Shown here: positions 1,238 through 7,738 of the stretch, in pieces
Layout: each line of letters opens with the position of its first letter
Position numbering within the stretch: position 1 is the first letter of the stretch
From: an uncultured Dehalococcoidales bacterium
Lineage (GTDB): Bacteria > Chloroflexota > Dehalococcoidia > Dehalococcoidales > W111
Reading direction: 5' to 3'
NCBI GenBank assembly: GCA_964517985.1
Contig: CAZFCV010000001.1
Coordinates: forward strand, 1 to 24,977
DNA length: 24,977 nucleotides
Translations under genes and position numbers: made by a program
The notes under the pieces: generated by a model
The model's input: only the letters and a program-made list of their open reading frames with translations
What the model was told of the DNA's origin: nothing
Database searches by the model: none

Positions 1238-2107
1238 ATGACATTTTATATTTTCGCCTTAAGTCTGGTGCTGGCTCTGGTATTGCTACCGCTGCTTGCC
1301 TGGAAGTGGCATATAGGGATGAAGGAAGCGGTAGCCGGCGCTATCATTATTGGCGGGCTAAGCGGGCTCATTGTGGGCTGGCTGGACTCTCTGGCTGCCG
1401 GGCAGCTTGATATCGCCGCGGTAGTCCTTCTTGAGCTAGCCCTGATTTTCCTGTTGACCTTTATCGCCATCGCTGTCCGGTTCTACCGTGACCCGGAGCG
1501 AACCCCGCCGGAAACGGAGGGGGTGGTGCTTTCTCCCGCCGACGGCAAGGTTATATACGTCAACCGGGTGGAGGGAGGCGTCTCCCTTGTTTCCACCAAG
1601 AGGGGGAAAAGCTTCCGGCTGGAGGAGATAGCCGCCACCGATTTGCTGGCTGGCGCCGCCTATCTGATAGGGATAGAGATGAACATACTGAATGTCCACG
1701 TGAACCGGTCTCCGGTTGGCGGTAAGATAGTCCGGCAGAAGCATATTGCGGGGAAGTTTATGTCTCTGGGTAAGCCAGAATCGGAGACGATGAACGAAAG
1801 GGTTACCACCGTTATTGATAGCGGGGCGTTCCGGGTTGGTATTGTCCAGATAGCTTCGCGGCTGGTGAGGAGGATAGTCAGCTACCTTAAGGAGGGCGAC
1901 CGGGTGGATATCGGGCAGCGGCTGGGGATGATACGGTTCGGGTCTCAGGTGGATGTTGCCCTCCCGGCGGTGGAGGGGCTTGAGCTCGGTGTCAGTCCGG
2001 GGGACCGGGTCCGGGCGGGGGTCTCCGTGATAGCCCGGTATGGTGAAACGGGTTCCCCCGTTGGCTCGGGGCAAGCGGGCGGAGAGGATTTGGGAGGTTC
2101 AGGATGA
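1238..2107 (+). CDS. psd: Phosphatidylserine decarboxylase-family proenzyme (pyruvoyl-dependent) with N-terminal transmembrane helices
   Basis: RFYRDPER, VLSPADGKV, HVNRSP, QIASRLVRRI, and autocleavage motif GMIRFG-SQVD (G/S at ~1940-1945). ATG abuts the upstream stop. Confidence 0.85.
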   Translation: MTFYIFALSLVLALVLLPLLAWKWHIGMKEAVAGAIIIGGLSGLIVGWLDSLAAGQLDIAAVVLLELALIFLLTFIAIAVRFYRDPERTPPETEGVVLSPADGKVIYVNRVEGGVSLVSTKRGKSFRLEEIAATDLLAGAAYLIGIEMNILNVHVNRSPVGGKIVRQKHIAGKFMSLGKPESETMNERVTTVIDSGAFRVGIVQIASRLVRRIVSYLKEGDRVDIGQRLGMIRFGSQVDVALPAVEGLELGVSPGDRVRAGVSVIARYGETGSPVGSGQAGGEDLGGSG

Positions 2108-3855
2108 GATTTGGGAAGGTGCTGCTGGTTAATCCCGCCTACCATGCGGAGTGGCGGGGGGTTACGCCGCATATAGGTCAGGCGTATCTTGCCCAGACCC
2201 TGCTGGAGAACGGGATTGAATACGATATCCTCGATATGAATCTGGGCTATAAGTGGAAGCATCTGCGGCAGAAGATTAAGGACTTCCAGCCGGAGCTTAT
2301 CGGTGTCAGCCTGATTTCTCTGGAGTACAAGAGGCTATATGCACTCCTATCGGCAATCAAGGATTTTGACCGGCGGGTAAGAATCGTGGTCGGTGGTCCC
2401 CATGTGACCATTATGAGGGAAAGGGTGCTGGAGGACTGCGCTGCCATAGACTACGGTGTTGTTTATGAGGGGGAGGGCACCCTTACCGAGCTCTGTATCG
2501 GCGCACTTCCTGAAAAGGAGATTAGGGGGCTGATGTTCCGGGACGGCGATAGGGTGGTTTATGGCGGGGATAGGGAGTTTGCTGCCAACCTGGATGAGGT
2601 GCCCTGGCCGCGATATGATAAATTTGAGCTGGGCAGGTATATCCAGGAGAGGACAATCTATTCCAGCCGCGGCTGCCCGCAGCAGTGTACATTCTGCCCC
2701 AACCGGATAATATCACCGCTGTTCCGGGCGCGGAACGCCGAAAATGTCGTTGATGAGATTGAATACTGGTACCGCCGGGGCTACCGGCAGTTCAATGTGG
2801 ATGATGACAACTTCAATCAGATAAGGGAACGGGTCTTTGCCGTATGTGATGAAATTGAGCGGCGCGGGCTTACGGGAATGTTCCTGCGTTGCTCCAACGG
2901 CATCCGGGCTGACCGGGTGGACAGGGAGATGCTTGTCCGTATGCGTGAGGTGGGCTTTCGCTATATTGCCTTCGGCGTTGATGGCGGCAATAACCGGATA
3001 GCCGAGAATTTCACCAGCCGCAATAATATAGTTGTTGCTTCAGGCGGTCGTGTCATGGGGCATTACACCGATACCATCCCGGTGGCACAGCAAACGGACA
3101 CCTGGGAGTATAATTGCCTTGATGCCGCTACGGCAAGCAGTGATTGGTTCGGCTTCTACTATGGAACCAGATATGAATCGCTGTCTCAGGTTCAGGCAGC
3201 CGGCTATGAGCTGCATAGCATTGACCTTGCCTCGTTGCTGGCTGACCCCGAAAATGGTGACTTCAGCCTGCAGAGTGGCTCGCCATGCCGGAATTCCGCC
3301 ACGCTTATCTATGGTATCAATGACCCCGATTCACCGTGGCCCTATGAGGGCACTGCTCCCGATATAGGGGCATTTGAGTACGGTTCCGGAGGAGCGACCA
3401 ATTATCCGCCGTCACTTGCCTCCATTGGCAGCCGGTCGGTTGGTGAGGGGGAACTGCTGCAGTTCACCGTCTCCGCCACCGACCCCGATGGTGACGCGCT
3501 GACCTACTCAGCGTCCAACCTGCCGTCAGGGGCGAGCTTTACCCCGGCTACCCGGCTCTTCTCCTGGACACCGACATCGGGCCAGGCAGGAACCTATAGC
3601 AATGTCCGCTTTGAGGTGTCGGACGGAGTCCTGACTGACTACGAGAATATAACCATAACCGTGAACGGCGCTGGGTCGACCTATGAAGACTGGGATGTCA
3701 ACAGTGACGGAGCGGTTAATGTCCTTGACATGGTTCGTGTCGGGCAGTACTGGGATGAGACCGGTACGGTGGCTTGGGTACGGGAAGATGTTAATGAAGA
3801 CGGGGCGGTCAATGTCCTGGATATGACACTAATCGGGCAGCACTGGACTGGATAG
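2104..3855 (+). CDS. In-frame chimera: B12-binding radical SAM N-terminal part (~aa 1-299) fused to the C-terminal tail of a secreted beta-helix-type protein + Ig-like domain + type I dockerin
   Basis: B12-binding domain (LLVNP...VGGPHVT), CxxxCxxC motif CPQQCTFC at 2674-2697, DDNF, FGVDGGNNRI. At ~3001 it switches to NFTSRNNIV...NGDFSLQSGSPC...PDIGAFEYG, then an Ig-like repeat (ATDPDGDALTYS...FSWTP) and two DVNxDGAVNVLD dockerin repeats (3691-3852). Confidence 0.8.
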   Translation: MRFGKVLLVNPAYHAEWRGVTPHIGQAYLAQTLLENGIEYDILDMNLGYKWKHLRQKIKDFQPELIGVSLISLEYKRLYALLSAIKDFDRRVRIVVGGPHVTIMRERVLEDCAAIDYGVVYEGEGTLTELCIGALPEKEIRGLMFRDGDRVVYGGDREFAANLDEVPWPRYDKFELGRYIQERTIYSSRGCPQQCTFCPNRIISPLFRARNAENVVDEIEYWYRRGYRQFNVDDDNFNQIRERVFAVCDEIERRGLTGMFLRCSNGIRADRVDREMLVRMREVGFRYIAFGVDGGNNRIAENFTSRNNIVVASGGRVMGHYTDTIPVAQQTDTWEYNCLDAATASSDWFGFYYGTRYESLSQVQAAGYELHSIDLASLLADPENGDFSLQSGSPCRNSATLIYGINDPDSPWPYEGTAPDIGAFEYGSGGATNYPPSLASIGSRSVGEGELLQFTVSATDPDGDALTYSASNLPSGASFTPATRLFSWTPTSGQAGTYSNVRFEVSDGVLTDYENITITVNGAGSTYEDWDVNSDGAVNVLDMVRVGQYWDETGTVAWVREDVNEDGAVNVLDMTLIGQHWTG

Positions 3856-4359
3856 GAGGAATGAGAGATGAGATTTGGGGGTTGGTTTAACCTCTTAAGG
3901 TGCGGGGCTATCCTGCTGATAGTCGGGCTGGGTGTACCCCTAGCCGGGCTGGTGGCGGCGGCGGGGGAGACGATTGTCAGTGTTTCCCCGTCGAGCCAGA
4001 CCGTTGACGCCGGGGGAACGTTCACCATAGACATAGCTGTCGAGCCGGGGGAGGCAATAGCAGGCGTGCAATTTGACCTTGGCTTTGACCCCTCGCTGGT
4101 AACGGTAAGCGGTGTTGAAGAGGGGAATCTGTTAAGTCAGGGTGGAGCGAGCACCTATTTCATTTCTGGTGATATTGACAATGGAGCGGGGACGGTAACG
4201 GGGGTAGCGGGGGCGATAATAAGCCCGGGGCAGACGGTATCCACGGCAGGGACGTTTGCCGTAATAACGCTGGTGGCGGGGACGGTAGATGGGACGAGCT
4301 CTCTTGAGCTATCCAACGTGGTAGCTGGTGATATAAACGGCAATTCGGTGCCGATAATT
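3478..4359 (+). repeat. Direct repeat copy 1 (882 bp): Ig domain + dockerin + stop + RBS + signal peptide + cohesin
   Basis: Compared line by line with 4468-5349 (offset 990) with no mismatch found; diverged homology continues over ~3415-3477 and 4360-4377. Confidence 0.97.
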
Positions 4360-4845
4360 CTAGCCGGTGGCGAGGTAGCAGTTGATGTTAACCAGTCACC
4401 GCTTCTTGCCTCCATTGGCAACCGGTCGGTCAATGAGGGAGAGCTGCTTCAGTTCACCGTCTCCGCTACCGACCCCGATGGTGACGCGCTGACCTACTCA
4501 GCGTCCAACCTGCCGTCAGGGGCGAGCTTTACCCCGGCTACCCGGCTCTTCTCCTGGACACCGACATCGGGCCAGGCAGGAACCTATAGCAATGTCCGCT
4601 TTGAGGTGTCGGACGGAGTCCTGACTGACTACGAGAATATAACCATAACCGTGAACGGCGCTGGGTCGACCTATGAAGACTGGGATGTCAACAGTGACGG
4701 AGCGGTTAATGTCCTTGACATGGTTCGTGTCGGGCAGTACTGGGATGAGACCGGTACGGTGGCTTGGGTACGGGAAGATGTTAATGAAGACGGGGCGGTC
4801 AATGTCCTGGATATGACACTAATCGGGCAGCACTGGACTGGATAG
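3868..4845 (+). CDS. Secreted cohesin - Ig-like - dockerin protein (adaptor scaffoldin-like)
   Basis: RBS AGGAGG; signal peptide ending VAAA-G; cohesin-like VSVSPSSQTV..G.TFTIDI...AGVQFDLGFDPSLVTVSGVEEG.LL...GTFAVITL; Ig-like repeat; C-terminal dockerin DVNSDGAVNVLD/DVNEDGAVNVLD. Confidence 0.85.
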   Translation: MRFGGWFNLLRCGAILLIVGLGVPLAGLVAAAGETIVSVSPSSQTVDAGGTFTIDIAVEPGEAIAGVQFDLGFDPSLVTVSGVEEGNLLSQGGASTYFISGDIDNGAGTVTGVAGAIISPGQTVSTAGTFAVITLVAGTVDGTSSLELSNVVAGDINGNSVPIILAGGEVAVDVNQSPLLASIGNRSVNEGELLQFTVSATDPDGDALTYSASNLPSGASFTPATRLFSWTPTSGQAGTYSNVRFEVSDGVLTDYENITITVNGAGSTYEDWDVNSDGAVNVLDMVRVGQYWDETGTVAWVREDVNEDGAVNVLDMTLIGQHWTG

Positions 4846-5349
4846 GAGGAATGAGAGATGAGATTTGGGGGTTGGTTTAACCTCTTAAGGTGCGGGGCTA
4901 TCCTGCTGATAGTCGGGCTGGGTGTACCCCTAGCCGGGCTGGTGGCGGCGGCGGGGGAGACGATTGTCAGTGTTTCCCCGTCGAGCCAGACCGTTGACGC
5001 CGGGGGAACGTTCACCATAGACATAGCTGTCGAGCCGGGGGAGGCAATAGCAGGCGTGCAATTTGACCTTGGCTTTGACCCCTCGCTGGTAACGGTAAGC
5101 GGTGTTGAAGAGGGGAATCTGTTAAGTCAGGGTGGAGCGAGCACCTATTTCATTTCTGGTGATATTGACAATGGAGCGGGGACGGTAACGGGGGTAGCGG
5201 GGGCGATAATAAGCCCGGGGCAGACGGTATCCACGGCAGGGACGTTTGCCGTAATAACGCTGGTGGCGGGGACGGTAGATGGGACGAGCTCTCTTGAGCT
5301 ATCCAACGTGGTAGCTGGTGATATAAACGGCAATTCGGTGCCGATAATT
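4468..5349 (+). repeat. Direct repeat copy 2 (882 bp)
   Basis: Identical to 3478-4359. Confidence 0.97.
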
Positions 5350-6447
5350 TCAGCCGGTGGCGACGTAACGATAACCGGGGGTACGACTCCCCCACCGGAG
5401 GGTGGCGGTGGTGGGGGAGGGATTGGTCCTACCGAGGATATAACACCACCCCGAATCCACGATGTCCTGGCTCGGGACATCACCAAGACCGGTGCCGATA
5501 TCTGCTGGGAGACAAATGAGTGGAGCACCAGCCAGGTGGAGTACCGGGCAAGCCCGAGCCAGCTTTCGCCCCTTGATGAGACAGCCGTCATCGCCCATAC
5601 GGTTCGGCTGAGCGGACTTGCCCCGGCGACTACCTACTTCTTCCGGGTAATGTCCCAGGACGAGGCGGGTAACCGGGCAGTGTCTGATGAATACAGCTTC
5701 ACCACCCTGGGAGAGCCAGCCGCTTTTACCGTGAGCGCACTGAATATAGATCCGGCTGATGTCTACGTTGGGGAGGCAGTACCCATCTTTGTCCTGGTGA
5801 CGAATAACGGCGATGTTGCCGGGGACTATGAAGTAGTGCTGAAGATTGATGGTGTGGTGGTGGCGACAAAAAATGTCACCGGCTTAGCCAGCGGTGCCAG
5901 CCAGGAGGTAACGTTCAACGCAGCCAGAGATAGTGCCGGGGTCTTCACGGTTGATGTTAATGGCGTTACCGCTTCATTTATCGTTAGAACAGTGCCAACG
6001 GCAGAGCTAGCCCTGGCTAGCCTTACTCCCCGGTATGATGCGGAGACGCAGCAGCTTACCTTTGCCCGGGTAATCTACCAGGTGGACAATCTGAACGAGC
6101 CGATGTCAGACGTTGAGCTTATCCTAAAGGTGAGCCTGGATGGCGAACCCCTGGAAGAGCTCTCTCTCCTCTCGGCAAGCCGGCTGGACCTGGGGGGGGC
6201 GGGCGGTATCCTGGATTATTCACCTCCGCAGGGGTGGCAGAGCGGTATCTATACCTTTGAAGCGGAACTATATACCGGCGGCAGGCTGCACACAACCACA
6301 GTGAAGGAACTGGAAGTCACGGTAAACCCTGATGCGGCAGTGGTCAGCTGGGCTGTCCTGGGCGGAATAATCGGAGTCACCATGATTGCCATTGCCGGTA
6401 CGATGCTGGTTGTATTACGGCGCCGGCGCAGTATGCTGAGGGCTTAG
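4858..6447 (+). CDS. Membrane-anchored surface protein: signal peptide, cohesin, Pro/Gly linker, FN3-like, CARDB-like and a further beta domain, C-terminal TM helix (anchoring scaffoldin-like)
   Basis: Same signal peptide and cohesin as 3868; linker TTPPPEGGGGGG; FN3-like DITPPRI...ICWETNE...LSGLAPATTYFFRV; CARDB-like FTVSALNIDP...VTNNGD..G.YEVVLKIDG; hydrophobic WAVLGGIIGVTMIAIAGTMLVVL then RRRR. Confidence 0.85.
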   Translation: MRFGGWFNLLRCGAILLIVGLGVPLAGLVAAAGETIVSVSPSSQTVDAGGTFTIDIAVEPGEAIAGVQFDLGFDPSLVTVSGVEEGNLLSQGGASTYFISGDIDNGAGTVTGVAGAIISPGQTVSTAGTFAVITLVAGTVDGTSSLELSNVVAGDINGNSVPIISAGGDVTITGGTTPPPEGGGGGGGIGPTEDITPPRIHDVLARDITKTGADICWETNEWSTSQVEYRASPSQLSPLDETAVIAHTVRLSGLAPATTYFFRVMSQDEAGNRAVSDEYSFTTLGEPAAFTVSALNIDPADVYVGEAVPIFVLVTNNGDVAGDYEVVLKIDGVVVATKNVTGLASGASQEVTFNAARDSAGVFTVDVNGVTASFIVRTVPTAELALASLTPRYDAETQQLTFARVIYQVDNLNEPMSDVELILKVSLDGEPLEELSLLSASRLDLGGAGGILDYSPPQGWQSGIYTFEAELYTGGRLHTTTVKELEVTVNPDAAVVSWAVLGGIIGVTMIAIAGTMLVVLRRRRSMLRA

Positions 6448-6479
6448 GGGGGGGGCATTTTCCGAAGGGAGGAAAGAAT

Positions 6480-6767
6480 ATGCCGCCTTTCGGCAGGCGA
6501 CTTAGATTTGCCATACTTGTCCTGATAAGCCAGGTACTGCTGATAGCCATGGCTATAGCCTGGGTCGTCCAGATGTCCCTCATCGCCAGGAACGGCGCTG
6601 TTTACTTCATAGAGGCAAACCCCTGGATACTGTGGGGAGAAATCATCGCCACGGCGCTTATAACCCTCTTCGCCACGGCAGTCTTTTCCCTTCAGCTTTA
6701 CCGGCTGGGGGAGAGGCGGGGTGCCGACCGGAGGCGGGCGGGTGGTTCCGGTAACCGGAGCAGCTGA
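6480..6767 (+). CDS. Small membrane protein, two predicted TM helices, unknown function
   Basis: RBS GGAGG upstream; two hydrophobic stretches and a basic C-tail. Confidence 0.75.
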   Translation: MPPFGRRLRFAILVLISQVLLIAMAIAWVVQMSLIARNGAVYFIEANPWILWGEIIATALITLFATAVFSLQLYRLGERRGADRRRAGGSGNRSS

Positions 6768-6838
6768 GTTTCCCATTCGGGCCCCTTTGACGTAGGGGTG
6801 CTAACAGCCCGTATGCCCGGACGCAGAAGCGCCCCCAT

Positions 6839-6867
6839 TTGACAACGGGGGAGCAGTGTTCTAATCT
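6839..6867 (+). promoter_or_regulatory. Sigma70-type promoter for uppP-birA
   Basis: TTGACA (6839-6844), 17 nt, TAATCT (6862-6867). Confidence 0.55.
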
Positions 6868-6922
6868 TTCCCGGTAGGCAGAAGGCGGACTGACGTTTGA
6901 TGTTGACTGCAAGGGCAGAGAA

Positions 6923-7738
6923 GTGACGGCATTCTTTTCCGACCTGATACTGGGGGTGGTTCAGGGGATAACGGAGTGGCTACCGGTAAGCAGTGAGGGT
7001 ATCAATACCCTTATTCTGTTGCACTTCTTCCACAAGCCGCTGAGCGAAGCCATTCGCCTCTCCATATGGCTGCACACCGGCACCCTTCTCGCCGCTCTGG
7101 TCTACTTCCGGAGAGACGTCGTGGAGCTGTTGCGCTACCTGCCCCGGTACCTGAGGGGGCTGGGGGGTGGTAGCCAGACGGAGCGGGACAGGCTGACCAC
7201 CTTCCTGGTGGTATCAACGGTGTGTAGCGCCGTGATAGGTGCCCCGCTGATGGTCTTCGGCTTGAGCCAGTGGGAGATTCCAACCGGCTGGGTGATAGCC
7301 GTTATCGGTATATTCCTGATAGTCACCGGTCTGGTGCAGAGGTATGCCCGCCGCTCTTCGGGGACGAAAACAACCGCCGGAATCAAGGACGCTGTCCTGC
7401 TTGGCGTGGTGCAAGCCTTCTCCGTAATCCCGGGGCTGAGCCGCTCCGGTATCACCGTGTCAGCCCTCCTCTTCAGAGGGTATGAGGCAAGGGCGGCAAT
7501 GAGGCTAAGCTTTCTGATGAGCATCCCGGTAGTCCTGGTTGCCGGGGTGGGGCTGGGTCTGCTCGGTGGTGCCAGTTTTGACCTGCCCGCTCTGGGTGGT
7601 ATTGCTGCTGCCTTTGTCTTTGGTCTACTGACTATCGGGGCACTGCTCCGGCTTGCCAACCGGATACCGTTCTGGCAGTTCTGCCTCTTTCTGGGGGGGG
7701 TGAGCCTGTTACCCTTACTGCTGGAGGCGTTCTCATAG
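6923..7738 (+). CDS. uppP: Undecaprenyl-diphosphate phosphatase (BacA/UppP)
   Basis: QGITEWLPVSS, HTGTLLA, PGLSRSG and SFLMSIP motifs; GTG start; multi-TM profile. Confidence 0.93.
   Translation: MTAFFSDLILGVVQGITEWLPVSSEGINTLILLHFFHKPLSEAIRLSIWLHTGTLLAALVYFRRDVVELLRYLPRYLRGLGGGSQTERDRLTTFLVVSTVCSAVIGAPLMVFGLSQWEIPTGWVIAVIGIFLIVTGLVQRYARRSSGTKTTAGIKDAVLLGVVQAFSVIPGLSRSGITVSALLFRGYEARAAMRLSFLMSIPVVLVAGVGLGLLGGASFDLPALGGIAAAFVFGLLTIGALLRLANRIPFWQFCLFLGGVSLLPLLLEAFS

Follow-up and report, generated by a model that had tools for sequence, protein, structure and literature searches.

A candidate cohesin-dockerin surface-display operon with a putatively stackable adaptor in an uncultured marine Dehalococcoidia bacterium

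Three neighbouring genes of an uncultured marine Dehalococcoidia bacterium are read here as a compact non-cellulosomal cohesin-dockerin surface-display operon with a stackable adaptor, and a probability of roughly 0.6 is assigned to this sequence-based reading. The products of the cassette probably assemble into a variable-length stalk at the cell surface, by analogy with the rumen adaptor ScaH. The window, i.e. the whole stretch of DNA analysed (24,977 nt), is an entire contig of a metagenome-assembled genome (MAG) of 1.2 Mb that is 92% complete, consists of 175 contigs and has a depth of about 4x (3-6x).

Organization of the locus and its tandem repeat

The three open reading frames (2104-3855, 3868-4845 and 4858-6447; genes A, B and C) are co-oriented on the + strand with 12 bp between neighbours, and a GGAGGA ribosome-binding site is located inside both 12-bp gaps. 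Cohesin, He_PIG and Dockerin_1 domains were all found across the three frames with scores above the Pfam curated cut-offs. The features of the locus are:

2104..3006, + strand: gene A, start of the frame, corresponding to residues 1-301 of a B12-binding radical SAM enzyme (Pfam; 78% identity to P0128)
3007..3405, + strand: gene A, aa 302-434, a beta-rich segment from the end of an extracellular-type protein (sequence; weak DUF5123 match)
3406..3855, + strand: gene A, He_PIG (aa 435-521) and dockerin (aa 531-583), with a TAG stop at the end (Pfam)
3415..4377, + strand: repeat copy 1, perfect core 3478-4359, running from the He_PIG-dockerin end of gene A across the 12-bp gap, ribosome-binding site included, into signal peptide and cohesin of gene B
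3868..4845, + strand: gene B, adaptor, 325 aa, signal peptide 1-33, cohesin 34-172, He_PIG 176-264, dockerin 268-325 (Pfam, homologues, AF2, Foldseek)
4405..5367, + strand: repeat copy 2, perfect core 4468-5349, running from the He_PIG-dockerin end of gene B across the spacer into signal peptide and cohesin of gene C
4858..6447, + strand: gene C, anchor, 529 aa, signal peptide, cohesin 34-172, Gly/Pro linker, FN3 198-283, CARDB 292-367, beta region ~375-490, TM helix 498-520 (Pfam, sequence)

The domain list of the first-pass annotation held for the co-orientation and for the cohesin, Ig, dockerin, FN3, CARDB and TM assignments, but gene A starts at 2104 instead of 3001, and its supposed beta-helix had no Pfam match. 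The Pfam bounds were 39-157 (Cohesin), 178-263 (He_PIG) and 273-319 (Dockerin_1) for gene B, and 39-155 (Cohesin), 198-283 (FN3/Pur_ac_phosph_N) and 292-367 (CARDB) for gene C. Both genes encode signal peptides, and the TM helix of gene C (nt 6349-6417) is followed by an RRRRSMLRA tail.

Positions 3478-4359 and 4468-5349 are identical in 882 of 882 bp at an offset of 990, within a broader repeat (3415-4377 and 4405-5367) of 98.9% identity over 963 bp. Due to this perfect repeat, the tails of genes A and B are the same from nt 3478 on, residues 459-583 of A being equal to 201-325 of B with both dockerins included, and residues 1-164 of B are equal to 1-164 of C. The earlier observations that the two dockerins are identical and that the two cohesins differ only in their last few residues were thereby confirmed.

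The radical SAM fusion and the assembly of the locus

Gene A combines half of a radical SAM enzyme, a cytoplasmic-type protein, with a dockerin tail and is as such a broken cargo gene. Its residues 1-301 correspond to the first 63% of a B12-binding radical SAM enzyme of 477 aa (the length of P0128, to which they are 78% identical), and the homology stops exactly at residue 301 (~nt 3006). The B12-binding domain (16-130) is followed by a Radical_SAM match (186-303) that covers profile positions 2-120 of 166 only, and no complete radical SAM core was found behind the B12-binding domain. The fusion joint at ~3006 is flanked by two GCAATAA heptamers. Behind the radical SAM part, the frame continues into the C-terminal ~280 residues of a dockerin protein, namely a beta-rich tail ending in a DPENGDF..PDIGAFEY motif, a He_PIG domain (435-521, 54.3 bits) and a dockerin of two F-hand repeats (Dockerin_1, 531-577). 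No Pfam beta-helix model matched residues 302-430, for which the sole hit was DUF5123 (E=0.03), and no alignment of this segment with the beta-helix cargo at related loci was obtained; the description of a beta-helix tail could thus not be upheld.

No signal peptide was found on gene A, and its product is therefore unlikely to be displayed at the surface here, which leaves the present genome with no recognisable exported cargo. The role of exported cargo or tip that had been proposed for this gene does not fit a product that carries a radical SAM half and lacks a signal peptide. The 5′ part of the cargo gene and its signal peptide would have been lost via the fusion to the truncated radical SAM gene. 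Because the cargo gene is broken, the copy of the cassette in the window is a partly degraded instance; decay of the locus may be underway, and judged from the sequence only the adaptor and anchor genes look functional in the present genome.

It is quite unlikely that the distinctive traits of the locus (the perfect 882-bp repeat, the lone middle gene, the fusion with radical SAM) are in large part products of low-coverage metagenome assembly, in which case the number of units might differ and an intact cargo gene might lie elsewhere. The fragmentation into 175 contigs at about 3-6x depth speaks for such an origin, as do the lack of a second radical SAM-dockerin fusion in a collection of 5.8 billion proteins and the synteny of PS-decarboxylase and radical SAM genes, which is kept in relatives without the cassette downstream. 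Independent k-mer (Logan) contigs of the public runs X1-X4, produced by another assembler, were compared with the window and span each of the four joints with 0-2 mismatches, which speaks against an artefact. For the fusion joint, however, only X1, probably the MAG's own sample, has such a contig (2596-3507, 0 mismatches), and X2 covers both sides without 2934-3163, which points towards an artefact. The left shoulder is bridged in X1, X2 and X4, the B-specific joint from cohesin to He_PIG in X1 (3872-4497), and the joint from the repeat to gene C in X3 (5226-5487). In favour of an artefact, too, the depth of the repeat in X1 (3.4-5.9) is not clearly double that of the flank (4.1), and the contigs cannot fix the copy number of the 990-bp unit. 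Against an assembly artefact, moreover, hundreds of homologues retain the linker specific to gene B, the missing C-terminal half of the radical SAM gene is absent from all other contigs of the MAG, and no loose ends point to an alternative join at ~3006. The three-gene layout is regarded as real because other loci show the same offset repeat with 76-92% identity.

Cohesin and dockerin modules and their predicted binding

The cohesins are genuine members of their family in both profile and predicted fold, and so are the dockerins in profile. Genes B and C scored 31.8 and 29.7 bits against Cohesin PF00963 (cut-off 24.1), and genes A and B scored 35.7 and 36.2 bits against Dockerin PF00404 (cut-off 22.9), so that the Pfam check suggested by the first-pass annotation turned out in favour of its assignments. 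A profile of the cohesin family alignment matched the solved cohesins 5lxv (E=3.6e-7), 5n5p, 4uyp and 2xdh. In the AF2 model of gene B, the cohesin (residues 40-170) and the Ig domain were predicted with pLDDT >90, and the cohesin model, a nine-stranded jelly-roll beta-sandwich, was matched by Foldseek to A. fulgidus 2xdh (TMt 0.76), C. acetobutylicum CohA2 (0.79), CipA 1aoh (0.76) and R. flavefaciens 5n5p (0.76) with a probability of 1.00 each. The dockerin retains both Ca-binding F-hands (DxNxDGxxNxxD) in intact form and has near-symmetric halves; in the repeats DVNSDGAVNVLD and DVNEDGAVNVLD, D1, N3, D5 and D12 are invariant or nearly so among 49 homologues. The dockerin profile matched the solved dockerins 2y3n_B (2.5e-7) and 2b59_B (3.3e-5). 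AF2 gave pLDDT <50 for the dockerin (B residues 267-325), and the partner pLDDT in the predicted cohesin-dockerin complex was 58, both in models without Ca2+.

Since the cohesins of B and C are identical over residues 1-164, a ligand of one should suit the other, and, the modules being identical, self-binding of the adaptor would necessarily be possible with a cognate pair of cohesin and dockerin. That they are cognate is what we infer, and it is very unlikely that the cohesins and dockerins are not mutual partners and each binds others (S-layer components, glycans or proteins of neighbouring cells), their adjacency reflecting shared regulation. Such separate partners would be in line with the many archaeal and bacterial cohesin and dockerin modules outside cellulosomes whose partners are unknown (PMC9012536). 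However, genes B and C carry the only cohesins of the MAG, and the candidate plugs are the cassette dockerins plus one other, on one unrelated small protein (contig C133), which brings the dockerins of the genome to three. Furthermore, the operon is conserved across many species with a spacing that suggests translational coupling, the conversion unit always pairs a dockerin with the cohesin of the next gene, and archaeal cohesin-dockerin pairs put to the test do bind, according to work cited in PMC9012536. The proposed survey for further dockerin proteins thus yielded cargo genes in relatives, but in the genome itself only the small protein on C133.

A cellulosome was considered and rejected, given that the MAG encodes no multi-cohesin protein (two single-cohesin proteins and three dockerins were found) and that relatives have a single cargo gene.

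A display system with a non-polymerising adaptor, which closes in cis, forms a closed head-to-tail dimer or acts as a single fixed spacer, is the less likely but most serious alternative. Cohesin and dockerin lie in one chain, one Ig domain of ~90 aa apart, and binding in cis and in trans is equally compatible with the present measurements. Additionally, the cohesins of adaptor and anchor are merely 46-60% identical at 6 of 20 loci, a difference that could make the adaptor dockerin favour the anchor and thereby establish a hierarchy; equal specificity is hence not universal among relatives. In the present genome, however, no hierarchy is possible because the cohesins (to residue 164) and the dockerins are identical. 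The short linkers on either side of the Ig domain (~5-8 residues) would disfavour fold-back, and the precedent, ScaH of R. flavefaciens, recognises itself in trans (PMC5301203).

For the favoured stackable adaptor, the following assembly is proposed. Gene C would raise its cohesin on a stalk of FN3, CARDB and a further beta domain, with the C-terminal helix in the cytoplasmic membrane. Gene B would be a secreted monovalent adaptor of cohesin, one He_PIG Ig spacer and dockerin, and the first gene of intact relatives would provide a secreted dockerin-tagged protein, often glycan-related and sometimes minimal. Because adaptor and anchor share the cohesin and adaptor and cargo share the dockerin, the adaptor dockerin could plug into the cohesin of the anchor or of another adaptor. 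Zero, one or several adaptors might thus be stacked between membrane and cargo, resulting in a variable stalk length.

Conservation, known systems and implications

The whole cassette, with the same gene order and spacers of ~10 bp, was found in about 17 Dehalococcoidia species genomes and several metagenome contigs, and in the same genus the cassette also exists as two genes, with no adaptor. The middle gene is not a local accident, since a large family of cohesin-He_PIG-dockerin proteins of ~320 aa is known from metagenomes. More than 100 metagenomic proteins of 310-340 aa share the architecture of gene B with 57-65% identity, and adaptor homologues contain one to three He_PIG domains (~320, ~410 and ~500 aa). 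An orthologue of gene C from the same genus has the same architecture and 51% identity. The cargo domains of relatives are glycan-related (beta-helix, DUF4838/GH20b, ConA-like, malectin) or minimal. As far as gene order and domain content tell, the layout of anchor, adaptor and dockerin protein is a conserved Dehalococcoidia operon, and the cassette is an accessory feature in some Dehalococcoidia. The suggested division into anchor, adaptor and cargo is borne out by this layout but fails for gene A in the present genome, with its fused radical SAM half and missing signal peptide.

At 9 of 20 loci, the cohesins of adaptor and anchor within the locus share 82-98% identity, clearly more than the 63-79% to the best orthologue. 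In the cohesin tree, the adaptor/anchor label has to change 14 times, at least as often as with shuffled labels, and seven same-locus pairs have SH-aLRT values of at least 95. The cohesins thus group by locus and not by position, which indicates concerted evolution of adaptor and anchor cohesins without a specificity hierarchy and fits a stackable adaptor. The tandem unit, composed of He_PIG-dockerin of one gene and signal peptide-cohesin of the next, would be homogenised by recurrent gene conversion, by which plug and socket would stay matched. Homologous recombination at the 882-bp repeat could in addition gain or lose exactly one adaptor gene.

The concept of a stackable adaptor is not new, because the ScaH dockerin of R. 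flavefaciens binds its own cohesin as well as the anchor ScaE (PMC5301203) and ScaH has been called a variable-length adaptor (PMC12270676). The novelty claimed for the system in Dehalococcoidia-like bacteria is hence limited to the host, for which it stands, since no paper in the searched literature connects cohesin and dockerin with Dehalococcoidia. Like ScaH (PDB 8AJY), gene B encodes one cohesin and one dockerin per secreted-type chain, here with the anchor gene 12 bp downstream, and its near-symmetric dockerin resembles the symmetric one of ScaH, which is of the dual-binding type; ScaH is described as setting the distance from the cell surface, a role that gene B may share. In contrast, ScaH belongs to the large cellulosome of a Gram-positive Firmicute with the sortase-anchored ScaE and type III modules, whereas the cassette, from a 1.2-Mb Dehalococcoidia MAG, comprises three genes in total with a single cargo, a C-terminal TM helix as anchor and a He_PIG Ig spacer between cohesin and dockerin of the adaptor. 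The similarity to R. flavefaciens modules is at profile level only (5lxv, E=3.6e-7).

Archaeal non-cellulosomal proteins (A. fulgidus 2xdh; ANME, Methanolobus; PMC9012536) share the cohesin fold (2xdh, TMt 0.76), cohesin and dockerin in one chain without cellulases, and host envelopes of S-layer or membrane only. Adaptor homologues of the type Coh-He_PIG-He_PIG-Doc (40-55% identity) form the C-terminus of Methanolobus proteins of ~1000-1560 aa, and Coh-Doc tails occur in ANME-1/2c and Hadarchaeota. In archaea, however, Coh-Doc mostly forms the end of a giant protein, behind which a small cohesin gene sometimes lies, whereas the cassette has a stand-alone adaptor of ~320 aa between the cargo and TM anchor genes. 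Clostridial scaffoldins (A. cellulolyticus ScaB/ScaC, C. thermocellum type I/II) follow the same logic of anchor, adaptor and dockerin protein with Ca-binding F-hand dockerins and jelly-roll cohesins (TMt 0.7-0.79 to many). Unlike cellulosomes, in which divergent cohesin-dockerin types order the assembly, the cassette has identical adaptor and anchor modules, one cargo gene, and no multi-cohesin scaffoldin, CBM, SLH or sortase anchor.

A further-reaching and rather unlikely proposal is that the locus acts as a genetic and physical "accordion", in which conversion-matched adaptor genes are gained and lost by repeat recombination, stacking varies the reach of a displayed glycan-binding protein across the population, and the system is shared with methanogenic and methanotrophic archaea by horizontal transfer. 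If true, stalk length would be heritable and tunable in wall-less Dehalococcoidia.

To our knowledge, what is known about cohesin-dockerin pairs comes almost entirely from cellulolytic Firmicutes. The cassette represents a minimal three-gene version (anchor, putatively stackable adaptor and cargo) in uncultured marine Dehalococcoidia, and modules homologous to its own occur in Methanolobus strains that can be cultured. As a simple natural system, it lends itself to studies of the roles of non-cellulosomal pairs on membrane- or S-layer-bounded cells and could serve to test the formation of variable-length stalks by self-recognising adaptors. The identical, self-compatible Coh-Ig-Doc modules are possible building blocks for protein polymers, and the concerted evolution of the plug-socket unit would be an example of how interacting modules stay matched.

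Gene layout, tandem repeat and domain identity

The genes of the cassette, A (dockerin fusion), B (adaptor) and C (anchor), lie on contig C1, which the window covers in full, in a MAG of 1.24 Mb (175 contigs, 92% complete). Domains were assigned with Pfam, and every call lies above its curated cut-off:

Gene A, 2104-3855, co-oriented with B and C, 583 aa: B12-binding 16-130; Radical_SAM 186-303; He_PIG 435-521; Dockerin_1 531-577
Gene B, 3868-4845, co-oriented with A and C, 325 aa: Cohesin 39-157; He_PIG 178-263; Dockerin_1 273-319
Gene C, 4858-6447, co-oriented with A and B, 529 aa: Cohesin 39-155; FN3/Pur_ac_phosph_N 198-283; CARDB 292-367

The Radical_SAM profile in A is matched at just 120 of its 166 positions. 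The A-B and B-C spacers are identical, each of 12 bp with a GGAGGA ribosome-binding site overlapping the stop codon. B and C have a common N-terminal signal peptide in their sequences, and C ends with RRRRSMLRA, preceded by a hydrophobic helix (498-520). A promoter scan yielded no candidate above chance, and a terminator scan found a weak hairpin 3' of gene C (6484-6499). This hairpin overlaps the start of an ORF of 95 aa immediately downstream of the anchor gene (6480-6767). The product of the ORF is predicted to have two TM helices, and its tail is rich in Arg and Gly. The upstream region 245-2107 encodes a class I methyltransferase that has a Trm112-like zinc ribbon at its N-terminus, and a protein similar to phosphatidylserine decarboxylase.

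Self-comparison of the window at an offset of 990 bp showed a perfect match of 882 bases between 3478-4359 and 4468-5349. Both shoulders have diverged, with about 85% identity over 3415-3477 and a partial match over 4360-4377, and the repeat as a whole comprises 963 bp at 98.9% identity. Because its unit consists of the He_PIG-dockerin end of one gene, the spacer and the signal peptide-cohesin start of the next gene, residues 459-583 of A equal 201-325 of B and residues 1-164 of B equal those of C. The identical dockerins and near-identical cohesins described in the first-pass annotation are borne out by this perfect 882-bp repeat, and all four domains hold as cohesins and dockerins against the curated Pfam cut-offs.

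The cohesin profile matches solved cohesins (5lxv at 3.6e-7, also 5n5p, 4uyp and 2xdh), and the top of the Foldseek list consists of cohesins throughout, namely A. fulgidus 2xdh (TMt 0.76) and clostridial and ruminococcal cohesins (0.7-0.79). Solved dockerins are matched by the dockerin profile (2y3n_B at 2.5e-7, 2b59_B at 3.3e-5). Both F-hand loops of the dockerin are intact and its halves are nearly symmetric, with NVLDMxx[VI]GQxW in each; in known dockerins such near-symmetry accompanies a dual binding mode (PMC12484212). Complex prediction for cohesin (alignment A2) and dockerin (alignment A3), run without controls, scored 0.27, below the mark of 0.32, and speaks neither for binding nor against it.

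Recurrence of the cassette and homogenisation of its modules

A search with B returned over 100 proteins, 310-340 aa long, with 57-65% identity, full-length coverage and the same Cohesin, He_PIG and Dockerin architecture, as well as longer homologues of about 410 and 500 aa in which He_PIG is present twice or three times. In long metagenome contigs the adaptor gene is placed between genes for a dockerin protein and a cohesin protein, separated by spacers of about 10 bp, in the orders DUF4838-He_PIG-Doc / adaptor / Coh-Ig-CARDB, Beta_helix-He_PIG-Doc / adaptor / small Coh-TM and minimal He_PIG-Doc / adaptor. A GTDB scan of one genome per species, annotated with HMMs built from alignment A1, gave 78 loci. 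The order [X-(He_PIG)n-Doc][SP-Coh-He_PIG-Doc][SP-Coh-...-TM] was found in about 17 Dehalococcoidia MAGs, and a two-gene form without the adaptor in other genomes including one of the same genus (G001). Genomes of the window's own order rarely carry the element: a full-length stand-alone adaptor was present in 4 of 201 sampled, and in a fifth the module set ends a protein of 1350 aa. The cassette is a real, conserved feature. The middle gene as a local accident was rejected, as its Coh-He_PIG-Doc architecture and specific linker are kept in hundreds of proteins and the cassette recurs. Two loci deviate in gene content: L028 (2085-11415, Chloroflexota MAG) holds two cassettes in tandem, the full three-gene set and after it an additional He_PIG-Doc gene and an additional Coh-He_PIG-He_PIG gene, and L034 (3093-8062) has Coh-...-TM anchor genes on both sides of the adaptor, without a dockerin-only cargo gene.

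In the relatives, a right-handed beta-helix, DUF4838 with GH20b, Laminin_G_3, Malectin or a short region precedes He_PIG-Doc. Such cargo suggests a function in binding or processing glycans and not in degrading cellulose.

The offset repeat was also seen in other loci, at 91.6%, 87.9% and 75.8% DNA identity. In 9 of 20 loci the adaptor and anchor cohesins are clearly more alike than either is to its best orthologue (for example 97.8 vs 68.6, 97.1 vs 73.0, 96.4 vs 73.0 and 89.8 vs 75.9% identity), whereas in most of the remaining loci the within-locus identity is below that of the orthologue, down to 46%. The dockerins of the 20 loci follow a similar pattern. In a maximum-likelihood phylogeny of the 40 cohesins, 14 changes of the adaptor/anchor label are required, the average for shuffled labels being 13.8; well-supported branches force at least 9 changes, and both cohesins of one locus are sisters (SH-aLRT of at least 95) in seven loci including the window. 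The B-specific linker is kept family-wide, so the adaptor arose once, and gene conversion has repeatedly homogenised the flanking modules. What is converted is always a dockerin plus the cohesin of the next gene, which is exactly the predicted binding pair.

Gene A fusion and assembly check

The radical SAM homology of A (78% identity to relatives of 477 aa) ends exactly at residue 301, at about nt 3006, and is followed by a beta-rich tail, He_PIG and the dockerin. The tail had been read as a beta-helix, which is not supported: it has no Pfam beta-helix match. Its equivalence to the beta-helix cargo of relatives was likewise unsupported, as the cargo of loci L023, L038 and L049 aligns over He_PIG-Doc only. 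The combination of radical SAM and dockerin is absent from all other proteins in a collection of 5.8 billion sequences, and the missing C-terminal radical SAM half is on no other contig of the MAG. Origin by simple deletion from a cassette normally located 3' of the radical SAM gene was discarded, as two relatives (L103 and L104) retain the upstream PS-decarboxylase / radical SAM synteny with other genes downstream. Copies of GCAATAA at 2987-2993 and 3020-3026 flank the joint and are possible microhomology for illegitimate recombination.

Logan contigs, made independently from four public sequencing runs (seawater or marine), were mapped onto 1500-7000. A contig of 912 nt from run X1 covers 2596-3507 with 0 mismatches and so crosses the left shoulder as well as the fusion joint; another of 626 nt covers 3872-4497 including the B-specific cohesin-to-He_PIG joint, and the repeat-to-C joint is covered by a contig from run X3 (5226-5487). 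With these joints bridged, an assembly artefact of the locus as a whole is distinctly improbable. It is somewhat less so for the fusion joint alone, which is bridged in one sample only, probably the MAG's own; run X2 from a separate study matches perfectly on either side, with no contig over 2934-3163. At a depth of 3-6x (about 4x) the repeat is not clearly at twice the flank depth, and the count of 990-bp units cannot be fixed.

Fusion protein A lacks a signal peptide, which makes its display on the surface as the cargo or tip previously proposed very unlikely in the source genome. As the cargo gene is truncated and fused, the window's copy of the cassette is partly degraded.

Predicted assembly and relation to known systems

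The only cohesins of the genome are those of B and C. A survey for further dockerin proteins, suggested in the first-pass annotation, returned one unrelated small protein in addition to A and B. This third dockerin, cut by the contig end, follows a signal peptide on contig C133 (1-252, minus strand) and adjoins a glycine-repeat-rich protein of 359 aa resembling a phage tail-fibre or adhesin protein.

With no other cohesins in the genome, the simplest interpretation is that the dockerin would plug into the cassette's own cohesin. Since adaptor and anchor share an identical cohesin, the dockerin of B could not tell anchor from adaptor, and zero to several adaptors should therefore be able to line up between anchor and cargo, which would give a stalk of variable length. 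That homologues differ in their number of He_PIG domains is consistent with a spacer role. Closure of the adaptor in cis, or closed adaptor dimers, are less likely than stacking; the AF2 model of full-length B (cohesin and Ig domain pLDDT >90) is uninformative on cis docking, as its dockerin is below 50.

Self-polymerisation of the adaptor is plausible and has precedent. ScaH of Ruminococcus flavefaciens is a monovalent Coh-Doc adaptor; its dockerin binds both the anchor scaffoldin ScaE and the cohesin of ScaH itself (PMC5301203), and ScaH has been termed a variable-length adaptor (PMC12270676). The claim that no such system is characterised in Dehalococcoidia-like bacteria stands insofar as no paper in the searched library joins cohesin, dockerin and Dehalococcoidia; the logic itself is already that of ScaH, with binding predicted for the Dehalococcoidia adaptor. 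Unlike ScaH and cellulosomes, the present system has a Dehalococcoidia host, a TM helix as anchor, an Ig spacer, a minimal set of three genes with one cargo, and concerted evolution in place of diverged specificities.

In the GTDB species scan, Coh-Doc tails were found in ANME-1, ANME-2c and Hadarchaeota, with a small cohesin gene after them; cohesin-dockerin proteins of ANME have been catalogued (PMC9012536). Methanolobus, cultured strains included, carries Coh-He_PIG-He_PIG-Doc tails on proteins of about 1000-1560 aa. Those of M. bombayensis DSM 7082, M. vulcani PL-12/M and B1d and Methanolobus sp. ZRKC3 (loci L052, L060, L065 and L079; about 1100-1560 aa) are 40-47% identical to the Dehalococcoidia adaptor. 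This similarity suggests inter-domain transfer, and the cultured Methanolobus strains provide a culturable test system for these modules.
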